DNA from: Rhizaria sp. SCN 62-66
Lineage: Eukaryota
Length of the DNA: 64,000 bases
Assembly: GCA_001724265.1 (NCBI GenBank)
Contig: MEDY01000087.1
Location: forward strand, 1-64,000
Direction: 5' to 3'
Shown here: positions 27,901-51,200 of the stretch, one piece after another
Numbering within the stretch: the stretch's first letter is position 1
How the letters are laid out: every line of letters starts with the position of its first letter
The notes under the pieces: generated by a model
What the model saw: only the letters and a program-made list of their open reading frames with translations
What the model was told of the DNA's origin: nothing
Databases searched by the model: none
Translations under genes and position numbers: made by a program

Positions 27901-30900
27901 CGGCGACGGCAGCGAGAGCCCCGACTCGGAGGCCATGGGGCGCAGGCACGACGGCGTGATGACCGCACTCGTGCCCGCGCTGGCGCCCGCGCTCGCGGTG
28001 CTCTCCGTGTCGCTCGAGTCGCCAGCGCCCCCGCCGCCGCCGGCGAGCATGTGCGCCGTCGCGGCGGCCGCGGCGGCGGCCGAGGCGGCCTGGGTGACCG
28101 TAGCGCGGTGGCGCGGCTTGCCGCCGCTGCTGAAACTGCCACTGCTGCCACGGGCGGCGCCGCTGGCGGAGCCGACCGTGGGCGTAGGGGCCTGGCTCGG
28201 GAAGTGACCGTGAGCGCCGGACGCTGCCGACGGGCTGTTGGGGTCGAAAAAGACCCGCGAGCCCGTGCGCTGGTGCTGCTTACTCAAGGTGCTGGCACTG
28301 TCAGCAGCGGCGACGGCGTCGCCAGTGGCGGCGGCCACGGGACTGGGGCCGTTGCCGTGGACGCCAACCGTGTTGATGGGCAGCGTGATCGGCGTCGGCG
28401 GCGTCGCGAAGATGGCGTCAGCGGCGCCGATGGCGGCGACGACGGCGGCCTCGGAGGCGGCAGCGGCCGCGGCCACGGCGGCCGCAGTCGTGGGCGTCGT
28501 CGTCACAGTATTTGTCGCACCGTTGCCGTTGGCGGTGCCGGCGACGGCGGGGTTAGACGCGGAGGCGGCGCGAGAGGGCGTGCCCACGGTCAGTCCGCCC
28601 GTGGTGGGCGACCGGAGCGAGCCGAAGCCGTGCGCGCCGGGCCCTCCGGGGAGGCCGTGGGCGGCGCCGGGGCCCACCGAGGCGCGCGACGACGCCAGCG
28701 GGGAGCGCAGCATCGCCATCTTGGCCAGCGAGGGACTACGGTCCGCGCGGCTCGTCAGCGGGGGCGTCGCCGCCGCGGCCGCGGACCCCGCGCCCGTACT
28801 ATGGGCGAGACGGGGGGACGTCAGCTGACCCTGCGCGGCGCCGGCGGTGGTCGCGACGCGGACGCCGGGGGCCGTGGCGGCGACGCCGGCCGCGGGGCTC
28901 AGCAGCGCTGCAGGGTTGGCGGCGCTGAAGCCGGCGGCTGCGGGGTTGTTGACGTCGAGCTCGTAGCCAACCATGGGGCGCAGGGAGAATAGCTGCGCCG
29001 TCGCGGCGTCGGCGGCGCTCACGGTCCCATTCGCACTGGCACCGGCGCTGGCGCTGGCACTGGCGTCTGTGCTGCCGTCAGCGCTGGCGTTGGCCTTGGC
29101 AGCCGCGTTGCCGGTGTTGTTGTTCGTAGCGGAGAGCGGTGCGGAGGAGTTGCTGTCGGGCGACACGATGCTGAAGGTGTGTTCCTTGGTGTTAATGGTG
29201 AGCACGCGCGAAGCCGGCGCAAACAGCGAGCGCGGGGAAGCGGCCGCGGACGCGGCCGCGGACGCGGCGGCCGAGGCAGAGGTCGAGGACTCGCCAGTCG
29301 CCGCAGAGGCAGCAGTGCTGATGCCGGTGGCCGCGCCGGCCGGGATGGGGATGTTGCTCGACGGGACCGGAGTCGACTCAGTGGCGGCCGCGGAGGCAGG
29401 GGCGGCTACAGAGACGGGGAGAGTGGACGGAGCGGAGGAGGAAGGGGTTGCGTCGATCGGGGCCACCGCTGCGCCATGGGCGGGCTGCGGGGCGAAGCCA
29501 GGCGTGCTCGCGCTCGCGTTCGCACTCGCGTCCGCCGAGCTTGAGCTGGCGCTGGCGCTTGTGTTGGCGTTAGCGACGGCGGTGTGGACGTAGTCGGCGG
29601 GGGCGGGTTCGGTCATGACCACGAGCTCCTCAATGCCGACGCCGCCGCCGCAACGCATGAGGTAGTCGGCGCGGCACTCGGCGCCCAGCGCGTCGACGCG
29701 GGCCTTGTCGCGCGCGTCAAGCGGCGTGCGCGGCAACAGGATCACCGGCAGCGGCCGGCCGTGGCGCAGCGCGTCGCGCGCGCACTGGAACAGAAAGAAG
29801 CAGCAATGGCCGTAGAGGCACTCGGCGAGGCCCTGCGCGCGGAGGATGTATGTGTTCGGGTCCGTGCCGGGAGGCAGGTACCGCGACACGAGGCCGCGAA
29901 TCACGCCCTGTGGATGTCGTAGAAACAAAAAACGGAGTCAACATGCAGAGAACGATACATCAGGATAAGAATATGATTTTGAAATAAAGCATTTAAGTAA
30001 AAAGTTCGGCCAAGTTTTGCATTGATTGGTGGATGAATACGGCATTACAGATGACGTGTCAAGAAAAAGAATGCGTACCTCTGCGGTGTCGCCCTCACTT
30101 ACGGCGATCGTGGTCTGGGACTTTGCCGAGAAGGCGGCGGGGAGCGCGACGGTGAGCAGCAGCGACGTGGCTCCCGGCGGCAGCGGCGGCGCCGTGGTGA
30201 TATAGAGCGGGTACTGCGCGTGCTCAGCCGCGGCGACCTGTAGCGCCGTCGTGGGCTCCAGCTCGAGTGCGGCGCGGCGGAACTGGCGCACGGTCGCGTT
30301 GTCAAAGTTCCAGTAGACGGTGTTGAGGTTGAGCAGCGAGAGCACGGGGGAACGCTCGCCGAGCCCCATGGACTCAAAGTCGTCCTTGATGTTCTTGATC
30401 ACCGTGTCGATGTCGTCCAGGATCGAGTGCAGCCCGTCAGCGACGGCCGAGCTAAGCCGCGCCTCGCGAGCCACCATCTGGGAGATCTCGTCGTGGAAGG
30501 AGAAGAGCCGGCTCGCCACGCGGCGCATAAACTCGACCGTCTGATACGACTCGGCGTGCTCGGAGACGTCCAGCAGCTCGTCCTGGCCCTGAGGCTGCGG
30601 CTGCGGCTGCGAGTAGGCGCCCTGCTGCTGTTGCTGCTGCTGCTGTTGCTGCTGGAGGGCGGCTGCGGCGGCCGCCGCGGCGGGCGGCGGCGGCGGGCGC
30701 CCGTGGTTGCTCACCATCGCGCTGCCGCGGCGGCCCGAGTTGAGCGCGGCGGCGGCCGCGGCGGCGTTGGCGTTGGCGGCGGCGATCGACACGGCCGCGG
30801 CGGCCACGCCGGAGCGCGGGGGCGATGACCCCGCACCGTGACTCGCGCCGTGGCTGCCTCCGGCACCGTAGTGGGAGCCGGCGGCGGCGGCGTTGCCGGT

Positions 30901-35966: not shown

Positions 35967-38900
35967 TCAGTTATCACCTTGAGTGTTGGTGACCCGCGAG
36001 TGAGCAGTGTTCATATTCTCAGTCGTGTCAACAAGAGCAAGAGTAATGCCTGTGTCTGAGCCTGCAGCTGCGGCAGCAGCAGCAAGCGATGATGGCAGTG
36101 TCACGACATTCTTGCCTCCAGAGGCATTACCTCCAGAGGCGTCAGCGCCCGTGCCGGTGGCCGCAGCAGAAGACTCCGCAGAGTTGACAGTGGAAGTATA
36201 TGTCTGCAATGAATCAGCATGTGCTTGCAGCCGGTAAAACATCGATGAAGGAGCAGCTTTGCGCACGAACCTGCCACCCACGCGAGGCTGCATGGCGCGA
36301 CTACCTTTGCGTCTGCCCAGAACGCCGAGTGCGACAGCACGGCTGGCAGCATCGTTGTTTTCTAGTGATTGTTGACCTTCAAGTTCGTCACCATCATCAT
36401 CGCCAAAATCATCATCCTCATCCCCGCCGTTGTTCTCTTCATCTTGCTCATCACTTTCCAGTGCCCGCTTCCGCCCCCGATTTACGGTCATATCTGCATT
36501 CGCACTTAAAAACAGCGTCTTCCCAGGGCGGCGACCCTTAATCTGCTCCCTTGGCACCATCTTAAACAACATGCTCGGTAGCACACCTGCAGCCGCGGCA
36601 GTCGCGTTCGCAGTCACCATAGCGTGCGTCGATGCAACTTCGCCGCCGGAAAAAGCTGTAGTCGACATCATCAAAATGTCTGCCGCCGTAACAGCGGCGA
36701 AGGCGACGCCCTCTGCTGCAGCAGCAAGTGAAACGGGATCGCCTGTGCGCGCGGCTGTCGTGGCAGCCGCGGCGGCAAACGTTCGCGTCGTTGTAGGGCC
36801 GTTGGGAGACGGGAATGATGGCAGAATAAGAGAACTCAGCGAGAGTAAAAGTTGCAGGTATCGCTGGCTAGGCAAATGTTGAGAGTTGTTAGTCGGGATG
36901 TCACCACTGTCACTGTTCGTATGGCTCTCAGTGCAACTCTCGGACTGTTTAGGCCATGCGTGCACAATAATCCGCGCGACCGGTGTGCCGCCCATTCTGT
37001 CCGCAACGGGCACAGTCGTCACAGCGCACAAGGCACCGGCCGAAGCAAGCAAAAGCGCGAGCGATGCCGCGAGCGAGCCAGAGGGAACCCAAGAAACACC
37101 ATTCTTAGCCTTTGATGCGGTGTCACTGGCCTGGGATGCTTTGTTATCATCCTGCGCTACTCCTTCTTTGCTAGTGGTGTCTTTTGTAGAACTATCCTTA
37201 GACGGCTTTTGCGATGGCGGCTGCGACGTCGGCATGGCATACGATGCCGAGAACAACAGATTGCCCTCTTCTGCGAGGGTGGATGGGGCCGTCACGTTTG
37301 CCGCTGCAGATGCGCTACTGGTGTCAGCGTTGTCGACTGCATTGCTCTGGTTGCTCGTAAAGGGGGTGTCTGAGAAGGGCAAGTTCAGATATTCGTCGAA
37401 ATCATTGTCATCTTCGTCATCAGTTCCACACGCGGTTCCGGAGCCAGTACTACCATCACTGTCATCACCACTAGAGCTACCACCACCACTGTTCTTGCGA
37501 CTGAGCGAAGAGCTGACTGTCTGGGCATCAGTCTTTGACACCGTACTGTGACCGTTGCTGGCATTATCGGCCTTCTTCGCATCAAAAGTTGAAAGTGCTG
37601 GCACACGAGACGGAGTTATGTAAATTTTAACCTCAACGACAGCACAAACCTTGACCATGAGCTCACGCACACCGTCATCGTCGTCATTTTCTCCAGTAGG
37701 ATCGTCGTTGTCTAGAGCTGATGAGGTGGTGCTCGTTGGAGATCGGTCGGCACTAGTTTTACTGTCACTGCCATAATCATCACGTGTAGCTGCATTTTTC
37801 TCGAGCATATCCTTGAGCCTGTTTTTGCGAGACGATGCAGGCACCAGTAGCGGAATATACTGCGCGTCCGGCTCCACTGGCAACGGCGCCTGCGCGCATA
37901 CATCATAGACTGAAGTGCCCAGCGTGACATATCTGTTCTCAACGTCGCTTGTCACGCCTGTCTGCATCATCAAAGTGATGCGCAGAAACCGCGGGCCACA
38001 CCTGCGTGGGCTTGGCAGCGGTGGCGCAGGCAGCGACGACAGAAAACCGCGTTTGCGAGCACCATGGGAAAGCCAGGGGTTGGTGATATAAGGCAGGTAT
38101 GCCGCGGGCACGGTGGTGAAGATGGTGTCAGAGTTCGGTAAGATGAACGGGATAGTCAAGCACGATGAAAGCGCGCGTTGCGTAAGCGGAGCATACGTCT
38201 CGGATGAATCAGACAGATTCTCTGCAGATACATCGTCTGCGGTAGCATCTTCTGTTTTGCTCACTTGCGGAACCGTCGCAGGAACCAGAAGACTATCGTC
38301 GACCTGTGGGTGGTAAGACAGCATCGCAGCGCGCAACAGAACTCTACCAAGTCCTTCCCGTGCCGACAGCGCACCCTCCGCAATATTACCAGCATCAGCA
38401 TCACCCGTCGCCGCGTCATTCATACCCGCGTTGCCACTTGCGGCAGCGGCAGCAGCAGTGGCAGCGGCTGCAGGTTTAGATAAAGCTGCTCCAGGCCAGG
38501 GCCAGGGCTTCGGCAGTTCAATCAGCCCTCGCGGCAGCCCCGCCTTACCAACAGCAAGCGCAAGGGCCGCCTCGGAGCCCACCACAATGGGCGCGGCGGC
38601 CGTGATCGGGCGCGGTCTCAGCCGCGGCCTGCCGCGGCGCGGCGCCTGCAGCACGCGGTTCATGCGGCGAATCACGCGCGCGCGCAGGGAAAGCGACGCG
38701 GCAATGGCGGCGGCGCGGAGCGCTTGGGAGGGAGCAGGTCGCGCGGGCAGGACAAAAGTGGAAGGAAGCGGAACAAATGGGAGCTGAGCGGCAGCCGTTG
38801 CAGCAACGCTAAGCATGGAAGCACCAGCGGCAACAACAGCGGGTGCGTTTTTAGAGCTTGCGTTTTCGACATTTGCCTCACGCGTATCAGAGTTAGAGGG

Positions 38901-41900
38901 AGCCTTGTCGTCAAGCGAAAAGTGCCAAACCGAGTCATCCCCATTAGCATTGTCACTTTGGGCATCAACATCAGCGACATCAGCTGTTGCGTAATTGCTC
39001 GCAATCTGAATATTCGAGCCATCGCCAAACTCATCGTACAACGCATTGCTATCATGGTCACGCATGGCACTCGCACTAGCACTCGTGCTAGAGCTGTTGC
39101 TGCTTGTGGTGGGCAGTGGAACAACAAAAATGCAATGATACAGCAGCGATGTGAACTCCTTGAGCACGCGCGCACGCCTCTGTTCGTAGCTCTCGTCATC
39201 GGGGACGGTGCGGGGCACCTCACTCTCGTCAGAGTCAGAGTCAGAGTCGGAGTCGCTGGTATCAGAGGTGTCCGAGTCACTAAACGCAGCATTCGCACCT
39301 AGGGTGGTGTTCGCCTTGTTGACAATGGCAATCGTGGCAAACTGTTCGCGCCACTCTAGAGCGCGCGAAGGCAGAGCTAGCGCAGCGCGCAGAGCGGCAG
39401 CGCCGCCAGGAAAGCGAATCTCGGCTCTCAAGTGTGTGTTCACAACACCCGGCGCAAGATGATGCGACCGTGAGTGCGACTTACTCCCGGTGATGGAGCT
39501 GTTATTGGAGTGGCGAATATAGTACACCTCGACTAAAGGCACGCGCCTGAGTCCAGAAGTGGTTGTGCTGCAATTGCCGTCATTATTGGCGTCGTTACTC
39601 GTGGATAAAGACGAGGGTACCACTGGAAGAACGTACCTCACGAGACGTCCACCGCCGGAAACTGCGGCGATCGTCGGCGATAGCGCGACGAGTGCAGGGT
39701 TAAACGTACTCCGACATAACGGCACGCGCACGCCTGTAACGCCGAGAACAGCTCCAGTTCCACTGCCGCCGGGACCAAGAGTCTTAGGATCAGTTGCAGC
39801 AAGTGCAGCTGCAGTGGGCGGAGGGGGCACGCGACAAACAGCCTTGTTGATTTGACCGAAACCGATGTTGCTGCTACTACTTGAGCTATTAGTGGCAAGC
39901 AAATGACGGTTGATACGCTTTTGATTCCTGCGATAACGTTCGCTAGCAGCCACCAGCGCCTGCAACACTACAATTGCATCGTCATCGCATGCACCAGCGT
40001 AATCCTTGGGAGTGTCAGCAAACTGCGTCGCAGTGGGCACCACACCGCGCCACACCAGTCCGGTCGAGTCCTCCCATGGAGCGCCACCAGGAACGGTCAA
40101 CGCGCGCAGCAGCGCCGCATGCGCACGAGCTTGACGCGGCTGCAGTGGCTTCTGAGAGCTCAGTGACCCCACGATCGGCCTCGGCACCGACATTGACTGG
40201 GAGTGTAATGGGAGCTGTGAGAACGGGAATTGCCCACGAGCCAGTGCAGCAAGTGCAGAGCGTGGCACTGCTGCAGGACCCAAAGGCTGGGAGAGCACAA
40301 ACGAGCTATCGTTCGTTGTGGCGTCGGCACGGCCGTTGCGTCCCCCGTGCTCCGCCAACGCTGTCTCGGCACTGGGTGGCGACGACTGCGCGCGCACGCG
40401 CGCAAGCCTGATCGCGACGCTGGCAGCGATGACATGGATTCCTCGTGTTGCCAGACTAGATGGCAACAACACGGATGTGGGCTGACGCGGGCGGACCAGC
40501 GTTGCCTGAGAATAATCCACGTTATCGTTGCTGTTCTGAGGCTTGCGTCGGTCCTTCTCTGCAACTTCTGCATCATAGTCAGCGTAACTGTCTTTACGGG
40601 GGCGGCCTGGGCGGCGCTTAATCTCCACGACACTATTGTCTTCACCATTGTCGGCAGCTGGCAAACTTGGACTTAGACGTTCACTCTGGCTCGCGTCGTC
40701 GTCTCCTCCAAGCGGCAACTGCAACAGGCCATCATCCTCGGGCCGCACACGCCGCACGCGAATCGCGCGAGGCGCCAAGAACAGAGAGTGGTGCGCTGCC
40801 GATATCATCTCTTGACTTTTGCGGCGCACCGCAGCAGCTGCCGCAATCGAAGCGACAGGACCAGACATGCTTGGGGCAAACTGCGTGTCGGTTCCCGGAG
40901 ATGGAGAGCGGGAAGCGCGCATGCTCGGGATGCCGAGACTGGCAGCGGACCTGACGGAAGCACGAGTACCAGCAGGGCCTGATGAGTGAATATCATCGCC
41001 GGTGTTGCTATTGCTGTTAGAAGCCTGATCGTCAATTGTCGCGGGAATTAACTGTTTGGGCGCAATACGTTGCCCCTTGACACTGGTATTGGGTGAAACC
41101 CCACTTCCAGTGTTCACACCGAGTTGCATGCTCGTTGCAGTGCCATTCTGGGACTGCTTAGCAAGCAGATGTGCAAGCGCCAAATTTTGATGCTGTTGTT
41201 GTTGTTGTTGGTGCAGTTGTTGTTGTTGAAGTTGCACATGGTGTTGTTGCTTCATGACAATCCCCACCACATACATCCCACCAAGCGGAGTCAGCTGTGT
41301 CACCAAATCTGCTGTACTTGTGCCTGCGTCCGAGCACCGCAGTGCCAGCCACGTTGCGCCGGCAACAGCTGTCGTGACCGCGGGACTGTCATTACTACCG
41401 TGTTTGGTGTTCGCAGCAATCACTGCTGCGGCAGCGTCAACCTGGTGCTTCAACAGGAGCTCCCAAATGGCGACGGGAGACATTCCTGCAGAGACGCTAA
41501 GTGCCGAGTACAACGCCGCAAAGGCCTGGCGTTGCGAGTCAATAAATTCCGGTGAAACGTCATTAAGCGTGAGACCTGGCATTGCAGAAGCAACATCCTG
41601 GGAGGCGACAGACTCAGCCATTGTGTTCGTGTTGATGCTGCTTTTGTTACGTGCGAGTGACCCCGTGCCACCAGCAGCGCTGCCTCTAGCAGTGCCAGCC
41701 CCAGCCCCGCTGTTGGACAAAGGCCCCACCGGGGGACTGAGCGATTTCAACTGTGACAACGATGGCGACTGCAAGTGCAACTGTGACATGGGTTGTAATT
41801 GTGCAGACAGTGACTCGGAACTAGGCGTACTATGAGAGGCATCGGCCGCCCTAGCAGCGCCTCTGGATGAGCTTTGTTGTGCAAGTTGAGTGTGTGTCGT

Positions 41901-44900
41901 CTGCAATTGTTGCATGAGCTGTAACTGCTGTTTCTGCATCATCGTCTGGTGTAGCTGCTGAACGCTCTGAAGTTTCAAGCGTAATGCAGTTTCTTTTTCA
42001 GACAGTTCCTGCATTTGCGACAAAGCAGCGTTTGCGGCAGGTGCGTCACTTGACAGCAGAGATGACGCAGAGGTCATTATGGTGCGGCGCTGAGACAGCA
42101 CCGCTTGAAGCTGCGCTTGCAGCAAAGCCTCCTCCTGCTAAGTCGCAGCCAAGGTCGCAGCGGTTACATTACCAAGAGCACTCGCTGCGCCTCCCTCGCC
42201 TGCGTTAGCGTTAGCATTGAAAGCACGAGTGTTGTCAAAATGAGGGGGCTTGGTAACGTGCATAGCAAAACCACCTTGGCTGAGAGTTGCCTGCGCTTGT
42301 GACTGGGACTGAGAGTGCGGCTGTGGGGGGCGACGTTGCTGCATGTAGTTGTCATCACCGTCGCCCGGTGCGACCGTGGTATCATACATGTCGTTTCCAT
42401 CGCGACCGTCGTCTGTTGTCGGTGCAGCAGTTTGTTGCCGATATTGCAGCTGCGACTGCGCCTCAGCGTCCGCTAGTGCCAGTGACCGCGCTTGCGCCTG
42501 CGCATGACGCGCTTGCAGTCGTAATTGCGCCTGTGACGGAGCAGGGACGTTCGACTGTTTAGGCTTCGGTAGTAGCGGCCTCATCTGTTGCATCTGCCTT
42601 TCTTGTGACAGAAGGTTTTGCTGCTCTTGGAGAAGAATATTCTGCTGCGCCTGTAACAACTGTTGGTGCTCGTAAAATGAGTTTCCATTCGACTCAATCT
42701 TGCTAATATCGGCGTTGTCCTGGCTCTCGCGCTCGCGCTTCACACGCATCAACGCGGTCGAGCCATTTCCAACTCCAGCACCAAATCCGACGTTAGTGTT
42801 AGAGACCGTGCTCGCAAATGAACTTGCGTTAGCGAGGGCGCTACCAGTGGCATATAAGCCCTGTGGCGCGGGCGCCTTGAGGTGCAATCGCACTGCCAAC
42901 AGCGCTGCGTGTGCGCGGGCAGCGCCCACCGCGCGGCGCAACACGCGGAGCGCGAGGCTGCACATGGTGGGAACGGGGAGTCGCCGATGCTGCGTCTGTT
43001 GCGACTGAGACTGAGACTGAGAGATGGAGTGCATCAGCAGCAGAGGCGATCCCGCGCGGGAGGCAGAGCGTGACTGCTGCAACTGCGCTGTCGCATAACT
43101 CCCTCTGCTGTTGCTACCACGCATCTCCACGAGCAGTTGCGCGACGCTCGTCATGCGGCACGCAAACACAAGCGCCGCCTCACCGCCATTCTCGGACAGC
43201 TCGGCCATCGCGATGTCGGCGGGGCTGGCAGTCGGCGTCGGCCGCTCGAGCGCGGATTCGTTGCTGATCCATTTGGCGTGCCCGTCATGGGTTGCACCGA
43301 GAGGCGAGTTGCCGGTGTCTCTGGCCGCAGCTGTCGCAGACGCAGCAGCAGCTGCAGTATATGCAGCAGCATTGGTACCATATTCACCTCCAACCTTCGC
43401 GTTGTTGTTGCTTATAGAAATGCTCTCATCGCCATCGTCGTCGCCACTGTTGTCGCTATAAAACGTGCCGTAGCATGTGTCCGCGTATTCGGCGTCGCGT
43501 TGTATCGCCTCGGTGAGCGGACCAAGCGTCATACTCACCGGCATGCCGAGGATAATTGATCGCAGCAAGTGTGCGAGGCCCGTCACGCCGTGGGGACCCA
43601 GTGTGGCAAAGTGCAGGTACTTCTGCAGCCGGTGCACATGCAGCCCTGCTTCGGACAGCGCGCGGAGGCTGCTGTCTGAGCTGCCAGGGGTCGTCGCCGA
43701 GGTGTGGGTCCGACCGTCATCGGCGTCGTCATCGATGCCGATCTGGTGGCCAGCAGCTGCCGTAACATTGCCATTGCGACTGCTGCTGCGGCTCGCGATG
43801 TTGTCAGCAGCACTGGTATTCGCACTCGTATTGGTGGTGCTGTTTTGCGCGTGTGTCGTCATTGCCACGTGAAAAGTGTGTGGCGTGATAAGATGGTCCT
43901 TGTTGACAACCCTCGCAATCATTGCGTACGCCATCGATGTCAACCGCTCGCGTTCCTTCACTTCCGTCGGGTTCGCCTGCGCCGGCGCGGGTGGCGGCCG
44001 GGTGCGCATGTTCATCGCGCAGTCCACAACCTGCTGCATCAGCGCGCTGTCCAGCCCGTCGTCGTCGCCGACCCCGCTCGCCGCGGCCTGCACCAGCAGC
44101 AGCTCCAGTAGCGTCGGCAGCGGCAGGTGCAGCAGTGACTCGCCGACCCGCGCCACCACGGCCTGCGCGGCCGCAAGCGGGTCCGCCGACGCCGCGACCG
44201 TCGAGGCGGCCTGCGCAGCCGCCTTCGCCGCGGCAATCGCGGTCTCGCGCGCGGCGCCCGTGATCGAGGCGGGGAGCTCGGCGGGGGTGCCGCAGAGTGT
44301 CATGGCGGCAGCCAGCGCAGCCTGCGCTGCCGCGGCCGCCGCGGCCGCAGCGGCCGCAGCGGCCGCAGTGGCAATTGGGCCGGTGCCCGCGGAGCCCGAT
44401 ATCGTGGTCGCGACGGCTGCGGTGACGCCCGCGAACAAGTCCGGCTGACGCACGCGCAGCAGCTCGGACAAAGCCAGCTTGAGCGCGCGTTCGCGGCTCT
44501 CGCGGACACGCCGGGACATCTGCAGCCGCTGAGTCTTGGCCACCGGAAGCGCGGCGGCGAGCCCGACCCACTCGGCGTTGAGGATGTACTTCTGCGCGTG
44601 TGACCGCACTTGCAGCGCGTCCTTAGTCCACACCAGACGCGCGATGCGCTTCCAATTGCGGCCATAGACAGTCAGGCCGGCGACGAAGACGCGGTGCTCG
44701 CGGCGCGTCCACACAATGCGCGGCCGCCGCTGTCGCGATCCCGCAACGGGGTGCAGCGGCACTTGGCCGGCCGCCGTTGCGGCCGCGGCGGCTGCAGCGA
44801 CGGCGCGCGAGCGGAGCATCTCCTCACGGCGGTGAACCGCGTCGGTTACAAGCGCGTCGAGCGTCTCGTCGCCGGAGTCTTCGACGCCGAGCAGCAGCTT

Positions 44901-47900
44901 CGTCTGCGCCACAATCGCGTGTGCCGCGGCGGGCGTCAGCGAAGCAATGACGCGCTGCACCGTGCGGCGGCGGCGGAAAGAAGCGCTGTACATCGCAAGT
45001 GACGTCGCCGAAAGGCTGGCGAGTGCGCCCTTGGTGTCATCGTCGTCATCTCCGTCGCCGCCGTTGCCGTTGCCGTTGCCATTGTTGTCATGAACACCGG
45101 TGCTGGCACTATGGCCGCCGCGTCCGCCACGACCACCGCCGCGCCCGCCGCGGACGCCGCGAGTGAAGGCAGTTTTGGTCACGACCTCGCCCAGCGCGTT
45201 CTTGTTCCAGCCCGATGCCGTCGCCGCGCGGGTCGGCCGCGAGCGCACCCGTTGCAAGTCGCCATCATCGTCGTCGGAGTCACCGTCGTCACGGGCAGCC
45301 GCGGCGCCAGCGGCAGCTGCGCCAGCGCGGGCACGCGCACCGGCAGCGTTGAGAGAAGTGTTGGCGCCCTGAGCAGTAAATGAAGAGGCTGCAGTAGCAT
45401 CGTTGCGTTGCGGTTGCTGCGACACCACCATCGACGGCAGCGGGAACGCGGGAATGATCATGACGTCGCCGTCGCCGTCGCCGTCGTCGTCGCCAGCGCC
45501 GGCACCAGCCGCAGCAGCAGCGTCGGCATTGTTGCCGTAGTCGGTGGACTGCGACGACAGAGGGGGCGAGAGCCCGCCACTCGCAGCAACCGCCGCTGCG
45601 GCCGCAGCCACCGCGGCCGCGCGCCCAGCTGACGGGGCGGTGGGAGCACTGCCAGGCTGCTGAGAGCCGTTCATGCTCTGGTTGAAGTTGTAGCCAACCT
45701 CACGGACAACAGAGGACTCGTGGAGATCCTCAGGCTCGCCGATGCCGAGAAACGCCGTCACCAGCGCCAGTGTCGACAGCGGCTCGGCAGCGGCAGCCGC
45801 CGTCGCCGCGGCCGCAGCAGCGGCGCCCGCGGATATCGAGGATGCGGCCGGAGCGTTGCCCGAGCTAAGAGGAGGCGGCAACAATGTCGCAGCAGCAGAC
45901 GCGGCGCCGGGCGCGAGGGTGGGACTGTTAGCAGCGGACAACGGCGAAGGCAGAGCAAGAACGTCGGTCATGGAATGAGTATGTTTGTCATCCGCAGTTG
46001 CAGAGCGAGCTGTGACAACCGCAGCGGCCGTAGTGGCAGCGCTGGTGGCGTTAGCAGCGGCCGACGCAGCCGCAGAGGCGAAGGCGGGCGTGAGCTGCTC
46101 TGGGGTCAGCGTGACGCAAGGGACGGGCCCAAGACGTGTGAGAACCCACTGCGACGTGTACAGCGTACTGACACGAGACCGTGCCCCCTTGAAGTCGACG
46201 GCGTTTGTTCCGGTTGTGTCGTCGTCATCGTCGCCCATTGCCTCAATACGCGTCTTGGTAATACCCGCATGAGCAATTGCACTGTGCGTTAACGCGGCGC
46301 CACTAGCGGCCGTATCACCGCGACTGTGAGAAACCAAGGCGTGACTCCTCGTAGTGTACCGCAGCACGTACCGCTGCCCCACCTCAAGCCCGACCGCGGC
46401 ACCCGCGATGACGGCCGCGTCGGCCGCCTCTGAGAGCCAGAGTCCGAGGCTGGAGGGCAGCGGCGGCCCCCCGCAGCAGTGATGCGCCACTGCGACCGCG
46501 CCCTGCGTCAGGTAGTATAGCAGCGCGGGGACCGAGGTCACGCCCACGGTACACGGCTCAGAGTCGTTGTCATTGTTTGCGCTTGCACCGTCACCGTCAA
46601 CGGCGGTGACATAGGCGTTGGAGGGAGCACGGGATAACTCCGCTCCGCCTACATTGCTGGAAGCCGAGCCCGCCGAGGTGGCAGTGGCGGCTGCGGCGGC
46701 GGCGGCGGCGGCGGCGGCTGTGAACACGGCGACCGTCTTGGGCCGAGCGGCGCGCGCGCCCTCGAGCAGCATCGCGTCAGTGAGTGCATCGACGTCGATT
46801 ATGGCCACGCCAGAGCGCGAGTGTGACATGTACGGCCGCGCGACAGGCGCGCCCGTGGCGATGGCGACCGCCGCAGTGGCACCTGGAGCAGGAAACGCTG
46901 AGGGCAGGGAGCTTGCTGTCGAAGTCGAAGATGTTTGCAGCGGTGGTGACTGTAACGATGACTTCGATTGTGAAGCGGGGAGTAAAGATGACATGAAACA
47001 ACGCACGACAGCCCGCACATTTGCTGGTGTATCGCGCACTGCAGCAAGCACTGGCTGCCTAGCTTCAGGCAATGGTTTCAAATCAGGAGAACTGGTGTCA
47101 CCGGAATTGCTCGTGGAAGTGGTGCTATTTTTGGGCCTACTCCCCTGGTGAGAACCGGTGATGTTTGTTAGGTTGAGACTGTTTAACGGGGGCGGCATTG
47201 CTGATGTGTTAATGCGAGATCCATTGCTAACATTATTATGACCAAAGAGTTGTTGATGTTGTTGCATCTGGATCAACATTTGTTGTTGCTGCAGCTGGTC
47301 ACCGGCATAATTACTGCTGGGAAACGCTTGACCCGAGATCAAGCCGGTCGTGCCAAGCATCGCGCTGCTGTTGCTGTTACTGCTGTTGTTTGACGTCAAC
47401 GGCGGGGATGGTGACTGCACGAACGAGAGAACTGGACGAATCAACGGTTGACCGCCGCTGCGCCGACCTGGCTGGCCATGCCCCATCTGCGGCTGCTGCT
47501 GGAGTTGCTGCTGTTGCTGTTGCTGTTGCAACGCGAGCGATTGCGCATACGTAATCGAGCCCGGCGACGCTTGCGCATACCCCAACTGCGCGTGGGACAC
47601 CGCAAGAGAGCTTGTACCGCTAGACTGTGGTGGTGACTGGACTGGGCCCTGGCCGTGCGTGTGCGAGAGTGAGTGTGATAGAGGCGGAGAACGCAACAGC
47701 GGTTGCTGTTGCTGCATTTGTTGGTCTGGCTGTGGCGGCTGCTGTAAATGTTGCTGGTATTGCTGGTACATCTGTTGTTGTTGCTGTTGAAACAGCTGTT
47801 GCTGCTGCTGTTGTTGCTGTTCTAACAGCTTTGACACCTGTAGCTGTTGCTGCTGCTGCAGCTGCAGCTGCAGCACGCCTTGCTGCTGCGGAGGCAAGTG

Positions 47901-50102
47901 CTCTTGCATCGAGTGTTGTTGCTGGAGTTGCTGTCGGTGTTGCTGCTGCTGCTGCAGTTGCGCAGCGTGATGCTGCGATTGGAGCATTTGCTGCTGCAGC
48001 GTAAACTGCGCATTCAGACTCTGCAGCCACGGGGTCGGGTCATTCAGGATCGAGCTCGCACCCGCAACAGAACCCGCCATCGTGCTGCCAGCAATGTTCG
48101 CACTACTCGCGTTGCCACGGCCCCCGTGTTGCTGCTGTTGCTGCTGCTGCGCGTGCATCGGCGGCGGGGACGGTGACGAAGTCGGCGTAATGCCCAGACT
48201 GGCGACATACGCAAGCATGTTGGCCGCGGCGGCGCTGTTGGCGCCCCCGAGGGCCGGCACACTCACGACGCTGCGCGGCGCGGCGCTCATGACAGTGGCG
48301 GCCGCGCTGTTAAGCGTGTTCGGGCCCGCGGGTGCGTCGGCCGCGCTCGCGCGCGGGTTGGCGTTGGCCATGGACGCAAGAGTAAACGCGCCAGAGTTCG
48401 AGCCACTGCTGCTGCTGCTGCTGCTCGCACCTGCAGAGTTGAAGCTGTGGCCGCCGTGGCCGCCGTGGCCGCCGTGGCCGCCGTGGCCGCCGTGGCCGCC
48501 GTGGCCGCCGTGGCCGCCGTGGCCGCGACTGCCCGCGGCGCCCGCGCTGCTGCTGCTGCTGTTGCTGCTGTTGCTGTTGTTGTTATTGTTGTTGCTGCTG
48601 TTGCCGTTCGCAAGCGCGTGCGAGTGCGTGTGGCCGCCGCGCGCCGCGGCCGGAACCAGCGACGCCGAGGGGCTCATACGCGGCGTCGTGGCGCCGCCCG
48701 CGGCGAGCACGGGGGGCGCGGGCGACGCGGCTGCGAGGAAGCGGCTGCTGACGGTGTTGTGCGTCAGGTTGTTCATGTTCGAGAGGCCGCTGTTTGACAA
48801 GCCGTTGCTCAGTGTGTTGCTGGCGGTGGCCCCGTGCGAGAAGGACGCGAAGGAGAACCCGCCCGCTGAGCCCGAGGTGGACAGCGGGGAAGACGCCGGG
48901 TAGCCGCTGTGGTGACCGTGCCCGTGAGCGTTGCCTGCAGTCGCCGATCCTGCGTGGAAGGACAGCGACGACGTGGGCGGCGGCGACGGCGATGGCGTCG
49001 GCAACGGGATGAAGGTGGTGAAGATGCCACTGACTGAGCTCGCGCTGTTCATCAGACTGGCTGAGCCGGGGTGAGCCAAGGGGTGTGACAAGTGACCAGC
49101 GTTGTTGCTGCTCGCGTGGTGGTTCGAGGAAGATGACGGCGGCGACGCTGCCGCCGTCAGTGCAGCAGCGGCGTTGGCAGCAGCGATCGTGCTCGAAGAC
49201 GCAGGGACACTGCCAGAGGTGCTATTGCTACCGCTCTGGCTTGAGCTCTGGCTTGAGCTGGCATTGAAGCTGCTGGCATTGAGGGGGTTGTTGTGACTGC
49301 TCGTCGCAGTTGCGCCAACACCGTGCTGCTTTGCTCGCGCCAGAGCAATCGTCGTCGCAGACAGACTCGCACTCGCGTTCGCAGTGATATTACCACTGCT
49401 ACTGCTGTTGCTGTTGTTGTGGTTGCTCGTGGTGGAGTTGTTGGCATTGCCGCTGCTGCTGACTGGGCTCGCGGCGGGCATGAAGCGGGAGAGGGACGCC
49501 GCTGCAGAGCCAATGCCGGGGCCGGAGCCAAAGCTAGAGCCAGTGCTCGAGCTCGCGCCCGCGCCCGCGCCCGTGCTGGAGCTGAGCATCGATGCGGAGG
49601 TCGACGCAGAGACGGGGTGGTTGGGGCCGCGTGTGAGACCTAGCGCTGCGCCGGCGCTGTTATGACCAGCGGCGGCGACATTGCTGGCTGGGGATGAGAG
49701 CGCAATCGTGGGCAGGTAGTGTGCATTTGCGTGCGGGTGAGGGATCGAGTAGTTAGTGACTGAAATGCTCGATGAAGCGCTGCCTCCACCGCTGCCGAGG
49801 CTGCTGCCACTGCTGCTGCTGCTGCCGCCGCCGCTGCCGCTGCCCCCGTTGCTGCGGAGGCTGCCAAAGCTCCCGGCGCCGGGCGAGGCCATAATGGCGC
49901 TCAGCGAAAGTGACTGTGGGAATGACATGGCACTGGGGCCGGGCAACGCAGCGGTTGAGGCAGGAGGTGCAATCGAGCCAGGGGCGGCGGCGGGCGGGGC
50001 GGGGGGAGAGAGCGAACGCCGGTCGATGGGGACAGAGGCGTGAGTGCTAGCCACGGAAAAAGGCACCGCAGGAGGAGAACCCGCAGGGGCAGTGCTGCTC
50101 AT
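35967..50102 (-). CDS. Giant low-complexity SHAQKY-class Myb/SANT transcription-factor-like protein with AT-hooks; ~4711 aa if the in-frame TAG at 42140-42138 is decoded
   Basis: Myb domain WTRREHRVFVAGLTVYGRNWKRIARLVWTKDALQVRSHAQKY (~44725-44585); AT-hook-like KRRPGRPRK (~40620-40592) and PRRGRPR (~38645-38625); poly-Q/S/N/A tracts. ORFs 50285-42138 and 42125-35967 are in the same frame, separated only by one TAG. Start may be ATG 50102 or 50285; ends TGA. Confidence 0.75.
48447..48527 (-). repeat. Coding 9-nt tandem repeat (GTGGCCGCC)x8 plus one near-copy, encoding (GGH)n in the Myb protein
   Basis: Directly visible perfect tandem array; translates as RGHGGHGGH...GGHSF. Confidence 0.95.
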
Positions 50103-51200
50103 AGAGCGGTAGATGCAGGAGCGTGCGCCTGAGGACGGGAGTGAGATTGGCGGCCCGGCGCAGATCTCTGGCGCGAAGGGGCGAGAGGAGGAAACAAGAC
50201 CTGGATTTTCAAGAGCAGGAAGCTCGTTGGTTCCAATGTGTTCGGGTAAATAGGTCTGATCAAGTATGAAGGAAATGATTGTCATGTTGTGAGTGCTTAC
50301 GGGGTAGATTCTGTGGCGCTAGATAGTAAAATAAGCGAGTTGGACTTCGCCAAGGTGGAGTCTGGACGATCGAAAGTAGATCCGCCGATTGAATTTGGAG
50401 CCCCAGAAACCGTCACTGAGTCATGAAAGAAAAGCAACATTCGTGCATATATAATATGTAGGTATTTTAAAAAGCATATCCTGCACTGGGCACTATAGAA
50501 GGCTATCAGTCGAGTTCACACTAAAATCGCTGACCGCGCCGAACTTGCCCCCGAGATCGTAGAACTACCAGTTCGCTCTGCAAACCCATATGTATGCGAT
50601 GCATACAAATGTATATAATTGCTTCGTAATGTACAATATGTGAACTCTTGATCGCCGTGTTTGTGTAGAAATAACCACGTTGCCTTATTGCGTAAATCTC
50701 TTCTATGTGAAGCGTCGGTCTTGCGGTGAGTGGAGGTGCGTAACTGTTTGTGCCACAGAAATAACAAAATTGGATATGTACACGCCCTCCTTAAGAGCAA
50801 TCTAATTAAATCAGAGTTATATTACGTAAAATGCATCGAATAAACATGATGTATGACTGAAAAGAACTATTGTATCCGTAATCACGCAATATATCCCTCC
50901 CCCGTTCGGTTGGACTCGCTGAAATGGTCGAGGCGACCTCGAACTCAGGGGGTATTTCTTTGTTTTTTTGTGTTGTTCATGTTATTTGTTGATATAAGTC
51001 TCGTATTTGCCTGATTAATTGCATCAAATGCGTATGCGTTGCTCCAAACCTCTCATATAAAGATCCACAGAGTCAACGGTGTGTTTTCTCTTTTTTCTTC
51101 GCCTTCGCTCACAAGCCACGCAAAACGTCTCACAAACGCACAAGGTAGCGGTATTGTGGCGATCTGCTTCTCGAACTTGCTTCCACACGCGCCGAGTCGC

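Follow-up and report, generated by a model that had tools for sequence, protein, structure and literature searches.

The window, the 64,000-nt stretch of DNA that was analyzed, carries on its minus strand two long stop-to-stop frames (42138-50318 and 35967-42137) that lie in the same reading frame and are separated by one TAG (Table 1). An earlier note on this DNA had described the pair as ORFs of ~2700 and ~2050 codons, and the arrangement is real, since the frames abut and the TAG is present in a second strain as well. The codons at the junction read ACC TTG GCT GCG ACT TAG CAG GAG GAG GCT. As the note had also held, the AT-rich spacer of a gene boundary is missing: GC content is 0.55 in the 150 nt on each side of the TAG and falls to no less than 0.44 in any 100 nt near the junction (windows starting at 41800-42400), as compared with minima of 0.24-0.29 for four intergenic stretches (783-9311 nt). 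Composition at the junction is a mixture of Ala, Gln and Glu rather than strongly Q-rich. The Myb domain proposed upstream was recovered by Pfam and is one that we take to be of the SHAQKY type, while the AT-hooks proposed downstream amount to two GRP motifs in a region where Pfam finds nothing.

Table 1. Features of the giant gene and of the splicing control (window positions)
Feature	Position	Strand	Remarks
In-frame TAG, taken to be sense (probably Glu)	42138..42140	-	Frame codon 2727; same letters in run X4 contig
Upstream frame part, low-complexity, Myb-bearing	42141..50318	-	2726 codons; Met at aa 12 (first) and aa 73 (second)
Myb-like DNA-binding domain, aa 1870-1911	44586..44711	-	Pfam PF00249, E 4.2e-6, passes cut-off
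Downstream frame part, no Pfam family	35967..42137	-	2056 codons; TGA end, then AT-rich DNA
AT-hook-like basic motif RRPGRPRK, aa 3235	40593..40616	-	Pattern match only; not found by Pfam
Second AT-hook-like motif RRGRPR, aa 3894	38622..38639	-	Pattern match only
Sole donor-like site upstream of the TAG in the set of in-frame intron candidates	42381..42387	-	GTATGAT, score 7.9
PI3K intron, control outside the feature	29908..30078	-	171 nt, GT-AG; in-frame TGA at 29940-29938

Four sequencing runs were compared over positions 38500-46500; run X3 has a hole at 41649-42405, and none of the pieces listed for the RNA-labelled runs X8 and X5 covers the TAG. The contig of run X4, which comes from a different study, spans 39588-42179 and thus reaches 39 letters beyond the TAG. 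Because its seven letter differences are all listed elsewhere, the second strain has the TAG, with no sense codon in its place, and an assembly error is ruled out. Three gap letters of the X4 contig are unplaced; the X5 and X8 pieces at 41200-41295 likewise have three, and those of X4 probably sit in a repeat at these positions. In a public protein library the downstream part appears as a protein of its own, 1982 aa long (P0362; window 35967-41900, minus strand), so standard gene calling splits the giant gene. Orthologues, whose alignment had been suggested as a check, were sought, and none spans the junction, either among 263 candidate stretches of a metagenome scan or in a search of representative proteins, which matched only Myb domains and the downstream frame.

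Abutting frames alone prove nothing, since the only other such pair in the window proved to be interrupted by a TGA within a PI3K intron (Table 1). The possibility that the giant-gene TAG is spliced away, as an acceptor or as the interior of an in-frame intron, was weighed against 58 high-confidence introns with canonical ends, retained from 288 noisy automatic candidates by a canonical-donor filter that omits atypical introns. These are 114-278 nt long, with GC of 0.25-0.55 and donor scores of 2.7-15.1, and the type seen in this genome has a GTAYG-type donor, a pyrimidine-rich acceptor and low GC. TAG acceptors are frequent here: in family matches, 7 of 13 lone TAGs are splice acceptors (kinase 4/9, helicase 2/3, dynein 1/1), and raw counts of lone TAGs in such matches therefore overstate the case. 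As an acceptor, the TAG at 42140 scores 3.2, at the bottom of the range of real acceptors, but each of the four in-frame donors that could serve it scores -4.3 or less, against at least 2.7 in real introns. The GTATGAT site at 42387 cannot be paired in frame with the TAG acceptor, its in-frame partner acceptors score 0.8 or less, and its use would require an overlong, GC-rich intron (at least 339 nt, GC 0.54-0.58). The search for splicing that removes the TAG thus uncovered no intron of this genome's type that fits by donor and acceptor scores, length and GC, and an intron over 42140 is unlikely. As an account of the locus, splicing would also leave unexplained the eRF1 TAG and the tRNA(CUA) described below, and we regard it as very improbable.

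Gene-specific programmed readthrough, in which near-cognate tRNAs would decode a UAG in a leaky UAG-C context, was one of two mechanisms proposed earlier, and the giant-gene UAG is indeed followed by CAG. The CAR-YYA sequence is a leaky readthrough motif, and UAG CAG GAG does not match it. Across 28 in-frame TAGs the next base is C 11 times, G 7, A 5 and T 5, which is no enrichment of C (P = 0.12), and the 120 nt downstream of the giant-gene TAG fold no better than shuffled sequences (z = -0.95). With a cognate tRNA(CUA) present as well, this mechanism finds no footing here and ranks below even splicing in probability.

Stop codons were surveyed in ~0.93 Mb of the 34.9-Mb genome, made up of the window and fetched stretches that partly overlap, ten of which had been picked for stops in kinase matches. 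Following at least 100 coding codons, TAA was found 51 times, never with coding sequence beyond, and TGA 36 times, once with coding sequence beyond. TAG was found 16 times, with coding sequence beyond in nine cases and an intermediate signal in two, the giant-gene TAG among these; of the five with non-coding DNA beyond, four are in introns behind a donor and one is ambiguous. By comparison, 78 TAA and TGA codons have non-coding DNA beyond, and the 58 that lack a donor-like motif were counted as gene ends (TAA 35, TGA 23). The share of TAG is 11-22% among neutral stop triplets and at most one in 59 among gene ends, with P = 0.015, 8e-4 or 3e-5 for a neutral share of 0.10, 0.15 or 0.20. The ambiguous TAG end (L087, minus strand, ~7400-7345) has as its alternative a TGA 16 codons further on, and a shifted frame there is also coding-like.

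Internal stops, flanked before and after by coding sequence, comprise 18 TAGs, one TAA and no TGA; two of the 18 had been selected for having a TAG, and the unselected 354 kb alone gives eight TAGs and none of the others, which is not significant by itself. Since random nonsense mutation would already yield ~70% TAG with this codon usage, 18 TAGs among 19 internal stops correspond to a P of only ~0.011-0.015. A relaxed filter, which admits gene ends and starts, returned 34 TAGs, 13 TAAs and 10 TGAs, and the context tests used 28 of these TAGs. Eight conserved domains contain a gap-free in-frame TAG, namely those of eRF1, UBE2J1, SUV3, four kinases and a ubiquitin-like protein domain; two further TAG rows were dropped as internal sites because they fall at match edges. 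In dynein paralogues, no TAG was seen inside the long conserved frames except at edge positions, other TAGs there having failed the coding filters, and dynein consequently gave no information on the residue. Three loci (L085, L086 and L087) hold paralogous kinase and SEL1-like genes with several in-frame TAGs, and L085 has one in-frame TAA; we regard these genes as weakly used or decaying duplicates.

A tRNA gene with a CUA anticodon was found in the genome (L035, minus strand, 1562-1490; G000:C84), scoring 58 bits against Rfam and followed by a T run. It is the one CUA among 13 matches of a pattern search, and a DNA search revealed no second copy. When compared with 27 other anticodon types, it is closest to the organism's own tRNA-Glu(CUC), with 47 of 73 positions identical, versus 33 and 27 for the Gln tRNAs; its first five acceptor pairs are those of both Glu tRNAs and its T stem is that of Glu(CUC). 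It has U11-A24, U13-G22-A46 and no base 47, which are Glu elements in E. coli (PMC9976931), and tRNA-Asp has these too. The anticodon loop carries A36-A37-A38 where the native Glu tRNAs have C38. The label 'Pyl' assigned by ARAGORN follows the anticodon; the molecule is a standard cloverleaf nearest to tRNA-Glu. Among the 28 anticodon types seen (63 of 506 candidates scored by Rfam) there is no tRNA(UUA).

The eRF1 gene (L032, G000:C63) has a spliced frame of 441 codons that ends in TAA and contains one TAG at codon 111 (minus strand, 1596-1598), aligned without gaps to human E107. In 117 homologues this column holds E in 106, D in 10 and V in 1. The same TAG recurs in L164, a second assembly that may not be independent of the source sample. 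The gene is the single eRF1 found, the other match to the eRF1_1 family being pelota-like. The protein carries three substitutions that are rare or absent among the homologues, T32S (0/117), G57S (0/117) and T58K (1/117), and retains L69. Thr32 contacts a stop codon's third base (PMC4605324) and bonds to the G of UAG (PMC5304391), and in yeast eRF1 T32A is lethal and E107A viable (PMC4381064). Judged from the sequence, the three substitutions, lying in the stop-reading pocket, probably weaken recognition of UAG. The one homologue that shares T58K is an 84%-identical relative that keeps T32 and has V at position 107. For this relative (P0005/P0242), eRF1 is 84% and dynein 92% identical, and the two proteins may stem from different organisms.

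Gap-free internal UAGs, genes that end in UAA or UGA, a cognate tRNA(CUA) and a changed eRF1 N domain, which are among the signs by which a UAG-only reassignment is recognized, are found in this genome. Under the standard code, the TAGs would be nonsense alleles in decaying genes or, in the giant gene, would separate two genes, with the tRNA idle or a weak suppressor. Such an account can point to TAG being the commonest one-step nonsense codon here (70%), to the clustering of TAGs, with an in-frame TAA, in the paralogue-rich loci L085-L087, and to a Met 21 codons past the giant-gene TAG in the downstream frame. Against these stand an essential and otherwise intact eRF1, TAGs common to strains (giant gene) and to assemblies (eRF1), the shortage of TAG at gene ends, the absence of an intergenic spacer at the junction, and strain differences in the giant gene that are synonymous in 10 of 19 cases, and in 4 of 8 downstream of the TAG. 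The tRNA(CUA) has diverged at 26 of 73 positions but preserved every stem. Retention of the standard code is accordingly about as implausible as splicing.

The amino acid inserted at UAG was approached through the conserved domains. Summed over the eight Pfam sites, none of which is invariant, the scores are E 760.9, Q 759.1, K 758.8, D 756.6, S 754.1, Y 747.7, L 745.5 and W 743.0 bits. Leu, Tyr and Trp, at 13-18 bits under Glu, are excluded; Glu leads Gln by 1.8 bits, and this lead over Gln and Lys of only ~2 bits counts against too firm an assignment. Because the profile lead is so small and several sites are Gln-like, the assignment to Glu rests mainly on the tRNA, whose Glu-like body makes Gln, the residue implied by the earlier note, the less likely choice. 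At the L056 site CaMK1D has Y, which is uninformative. Given that UAG is decoded, these comparisons indicate that it quite likely means Glu.

The same reassignment with UAG read as Gln, or as a mixture of Glu and Gln, would require the Glu-bodied amber tRNA to be wholly or partly charged by GlnRS, and amber suppressor tRNAs are described as accepting glutamine in E. coli (PMC9976931). The residue facing the TAG is Gln in this organism's ubiquitin, in a SEL1-like paralogue and in the human kinases NEK1 and MST. Three of the 28 TAG sites, in polyQ contexts, have strongly Q-like flanks, as do 2.2% of GAG and 23% of CAG codons; the summed flank score favors Gln by 10.6 bits, driven by these three sites, and the distribution for TAG lies between those for GAG and CAG. 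Set against this are the body of the tRNA, which is not Gln-like, and columns of E or D: eRF1 position 107, the UBE2J1 column (D 37, N 32, H 17, S 13, T 11, E 8, G 2, Q 0; n = 120), and D opposite the TAG in human SUV3 and in close paralogues at two sites. Moreover, transitions from CAG to TAG would place even a Glu codon in Q contexts. Decoding as Gln or a mixture is thus improbable, though it stands first among the alternatives.

We therefore favor, at a probability of about 0.6, a variant nuclear code in which UAG, most likely with the meaning Glu, is a sense codon of rare use, UAA and UGA are stops, a tRNA(CUA) derived from tRNA-Glu(CUC) reads UAG, and the giant gene is one frame. A single-copy tRNA that arose from tRNA-Glu(CUC) and now carries the anticodon CUA would decode UAG, presumably charged with Glu, while the changed eRF1 pocket would recognize UAG poorly enough for termination there to be lost. 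The tRNA would then prevail at UAG and the ribosome would pass 42140. Since UAG would be sense throughout the genome, the giant gene would be a single frame of ~4,710-4,770 codons, its predicted product a mostly disordered protein of the nucleus that combines a single Myb domain with basic motifs further downstream. The earlier proposal of one ~4700 aa protein made by UAG decoding is in this respect supported, by the tRNA(CUA), the TAGs in eRF1 and other conserved genes and the lack of TAG at gene ends; what does not carry over is its restriction to one gene, the decoding being genome-wide. Two further points weigh against the favored code: the V at position 107 in the nearest eRF1 relative, and a UAG far rarer than in published reassignments (PMC11687900).

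UAG occurs ~0.15 times per 1000 codons (11 in ~75,000, numerator and denominator coming from different filters), about three times below the rarest ordinary sense codon (0.45 per 1000). With a codon this rare, some termination at UAG could persist, as could feedback by way of the UAG in eRF1. UAG might thus have a dual meaning, with the product of one tRNA gene competing against an eRF1 that still reads UAG, truncated and full products being made side by side and the eRF1 UAG acting as a feedback switch. The TAG-free interior of the long dynein frames, the conservative nature of T32S, the one tRNA copy found and the possible TAG gene end in L087 would all suit such competition, as would the AAA that follows the eRF1 TAG, the sole AAA among 32 Lys codons, a feature noticed post hoc. 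Rarity is, however, also expected from GC-biased codon usage, and reassigned codons are described as rare in highly expressed genes elsewhere too (PMC5304391, PMC12153298); chance could plausibly account for one TAG where a gene has 30 Glu codons, and no special context is seen near the TAGs. We consider a dual UAG doubtful, slightly more so than decoding as Gln. Equally speculative is the idea that this GC-rich cercozoan has an undescribed code (UAG as Glu, UAA and UGA terminating) that is still ambiguous, where UAG would persist as the rarest codon and a Glu-derived amber tRNA would face a half-blind eRF1 under feedback from the UAG in its own message. If true, eRF1 synthesis would depend on the failure of its own termination, a eukaryotic counterpart of the bacterial RF2 feedback, and giant genes such as the Myb gene would yield short and long forms.

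The genome (G000) comprises 714 contigs and has spliceosomal introns. Among named matches, its dynein heavy chain is closest to a Cercozoa-labelled transcriptome (59%), followed by Plasmodiophora (57%), chlorarachniophytes (52-53%) and stramenopiles (at most 49%), and in a quick dynein tree of 34 rows it falls among cercozoan rows with no named sister. With this one gene as the basis, we call the organism rhizarian, probably cercozoan. Polyubiquitin junctions are a rhizarian marker, and none was seen in the 8 of 23 loci that were read. The ubiquitin genes at L122, L123, L125, L126 and L129 are monomers with an MS-MQIFVK start and a short tail past GG, some copies being internally deleted. The 18S rRNA gene (L048, 2583-5506) has four matches to group I introns.

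Separate meanings of UAG and UAA are known from few lineages, and the organism described here would be the second rhizarian among them, with another residue. In the portions of the literature consulted, changes of UAG alone lead to Leu, Gln or Ser, and UAG means Glu only where UAA is also reassigned (PMC5304391, PMC10553269, PMC11687900, PMC12153298). A search of open-licence PubMed Central and bioRxiv returned no report in which UAG is Glu while UAA and UGA still terminate, and no rhizarian UAG reassignment besides exLh; if Glu holds, the codon table is one we have not found in print. Because UAG is used so seldom, genes in this genome are split or cut short unnoticed by standard annotation, and low-use reassignments may go unnoticed in other metagenome-assembled eukaryotes. 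As the tRNA and eRF1 sequences are in hand, T32S and T58K can be tested in yeast for loss of UAG with retention of UAA and UGA.

The nearest parallels are the rhizarian exLh (Sainouroidea, UAG as Leu) and Iotanema spirale (UAG as Gln), in which UAG is likewise sense and UAA and UGA end genes (PMC5304391). exLh is a rhizarian as well, and in I. spirale Thr32 of eRF1 is also changed (T32G there, T32S here). The organism described here differs from exLh in that Leu lies 15 bits below Glu and in its low use of UAG, exLh having 384 UAGs in 71 genes; it differs from both in that eRF1 keeps L69 and that a tRNA gene was found, the cognate tRNA being only predicted in those organisms (PMC5304391). The ciliate Oligohymenophorea sp. 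PL0344 (UAG as Glu, UAA as Lys) resembles it in having tRNA(CUA) most similar to tRNA-Glu, but has UAA as sense too and 10 tRNA(CUA) genes that are 69-93% identical to tRNA-Glu, as opposed to the one found here, at 64% (PMC10553269). In Blastocrithidia (UAR as Glu), a tRNA-Glu(CUA) reads UAG and the codon is depleted in highly expressed genes (PMC12153298), whereas there and in peritrich ciliates (UAR as Glu; cited in PMC11687900) UAA was reassigned alongside UAG. Phyllopharyngean ciliates (UAG as Leu or Gln, UAA kept) share the reassignment of UAG alone, one or two tRNA(CUA) genes and a description that draws partly on metagenome-assembled genomes, but UAG occurs in 78-91% of their genes, as against a small minority here, and stands for another residue, if Glu holds here (PMC11687900). 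Finally, the autoregulation of plant eRF1-1 by readthrough and NMD (PMC5397192) illustrates how the level of eRF1 could be sensed by a stop codon of its own message; in the plant, this involves the terminal stop and the 3' UTR, whereas the UAG considered here lies within the N domain, where the feedback is hypothetical.
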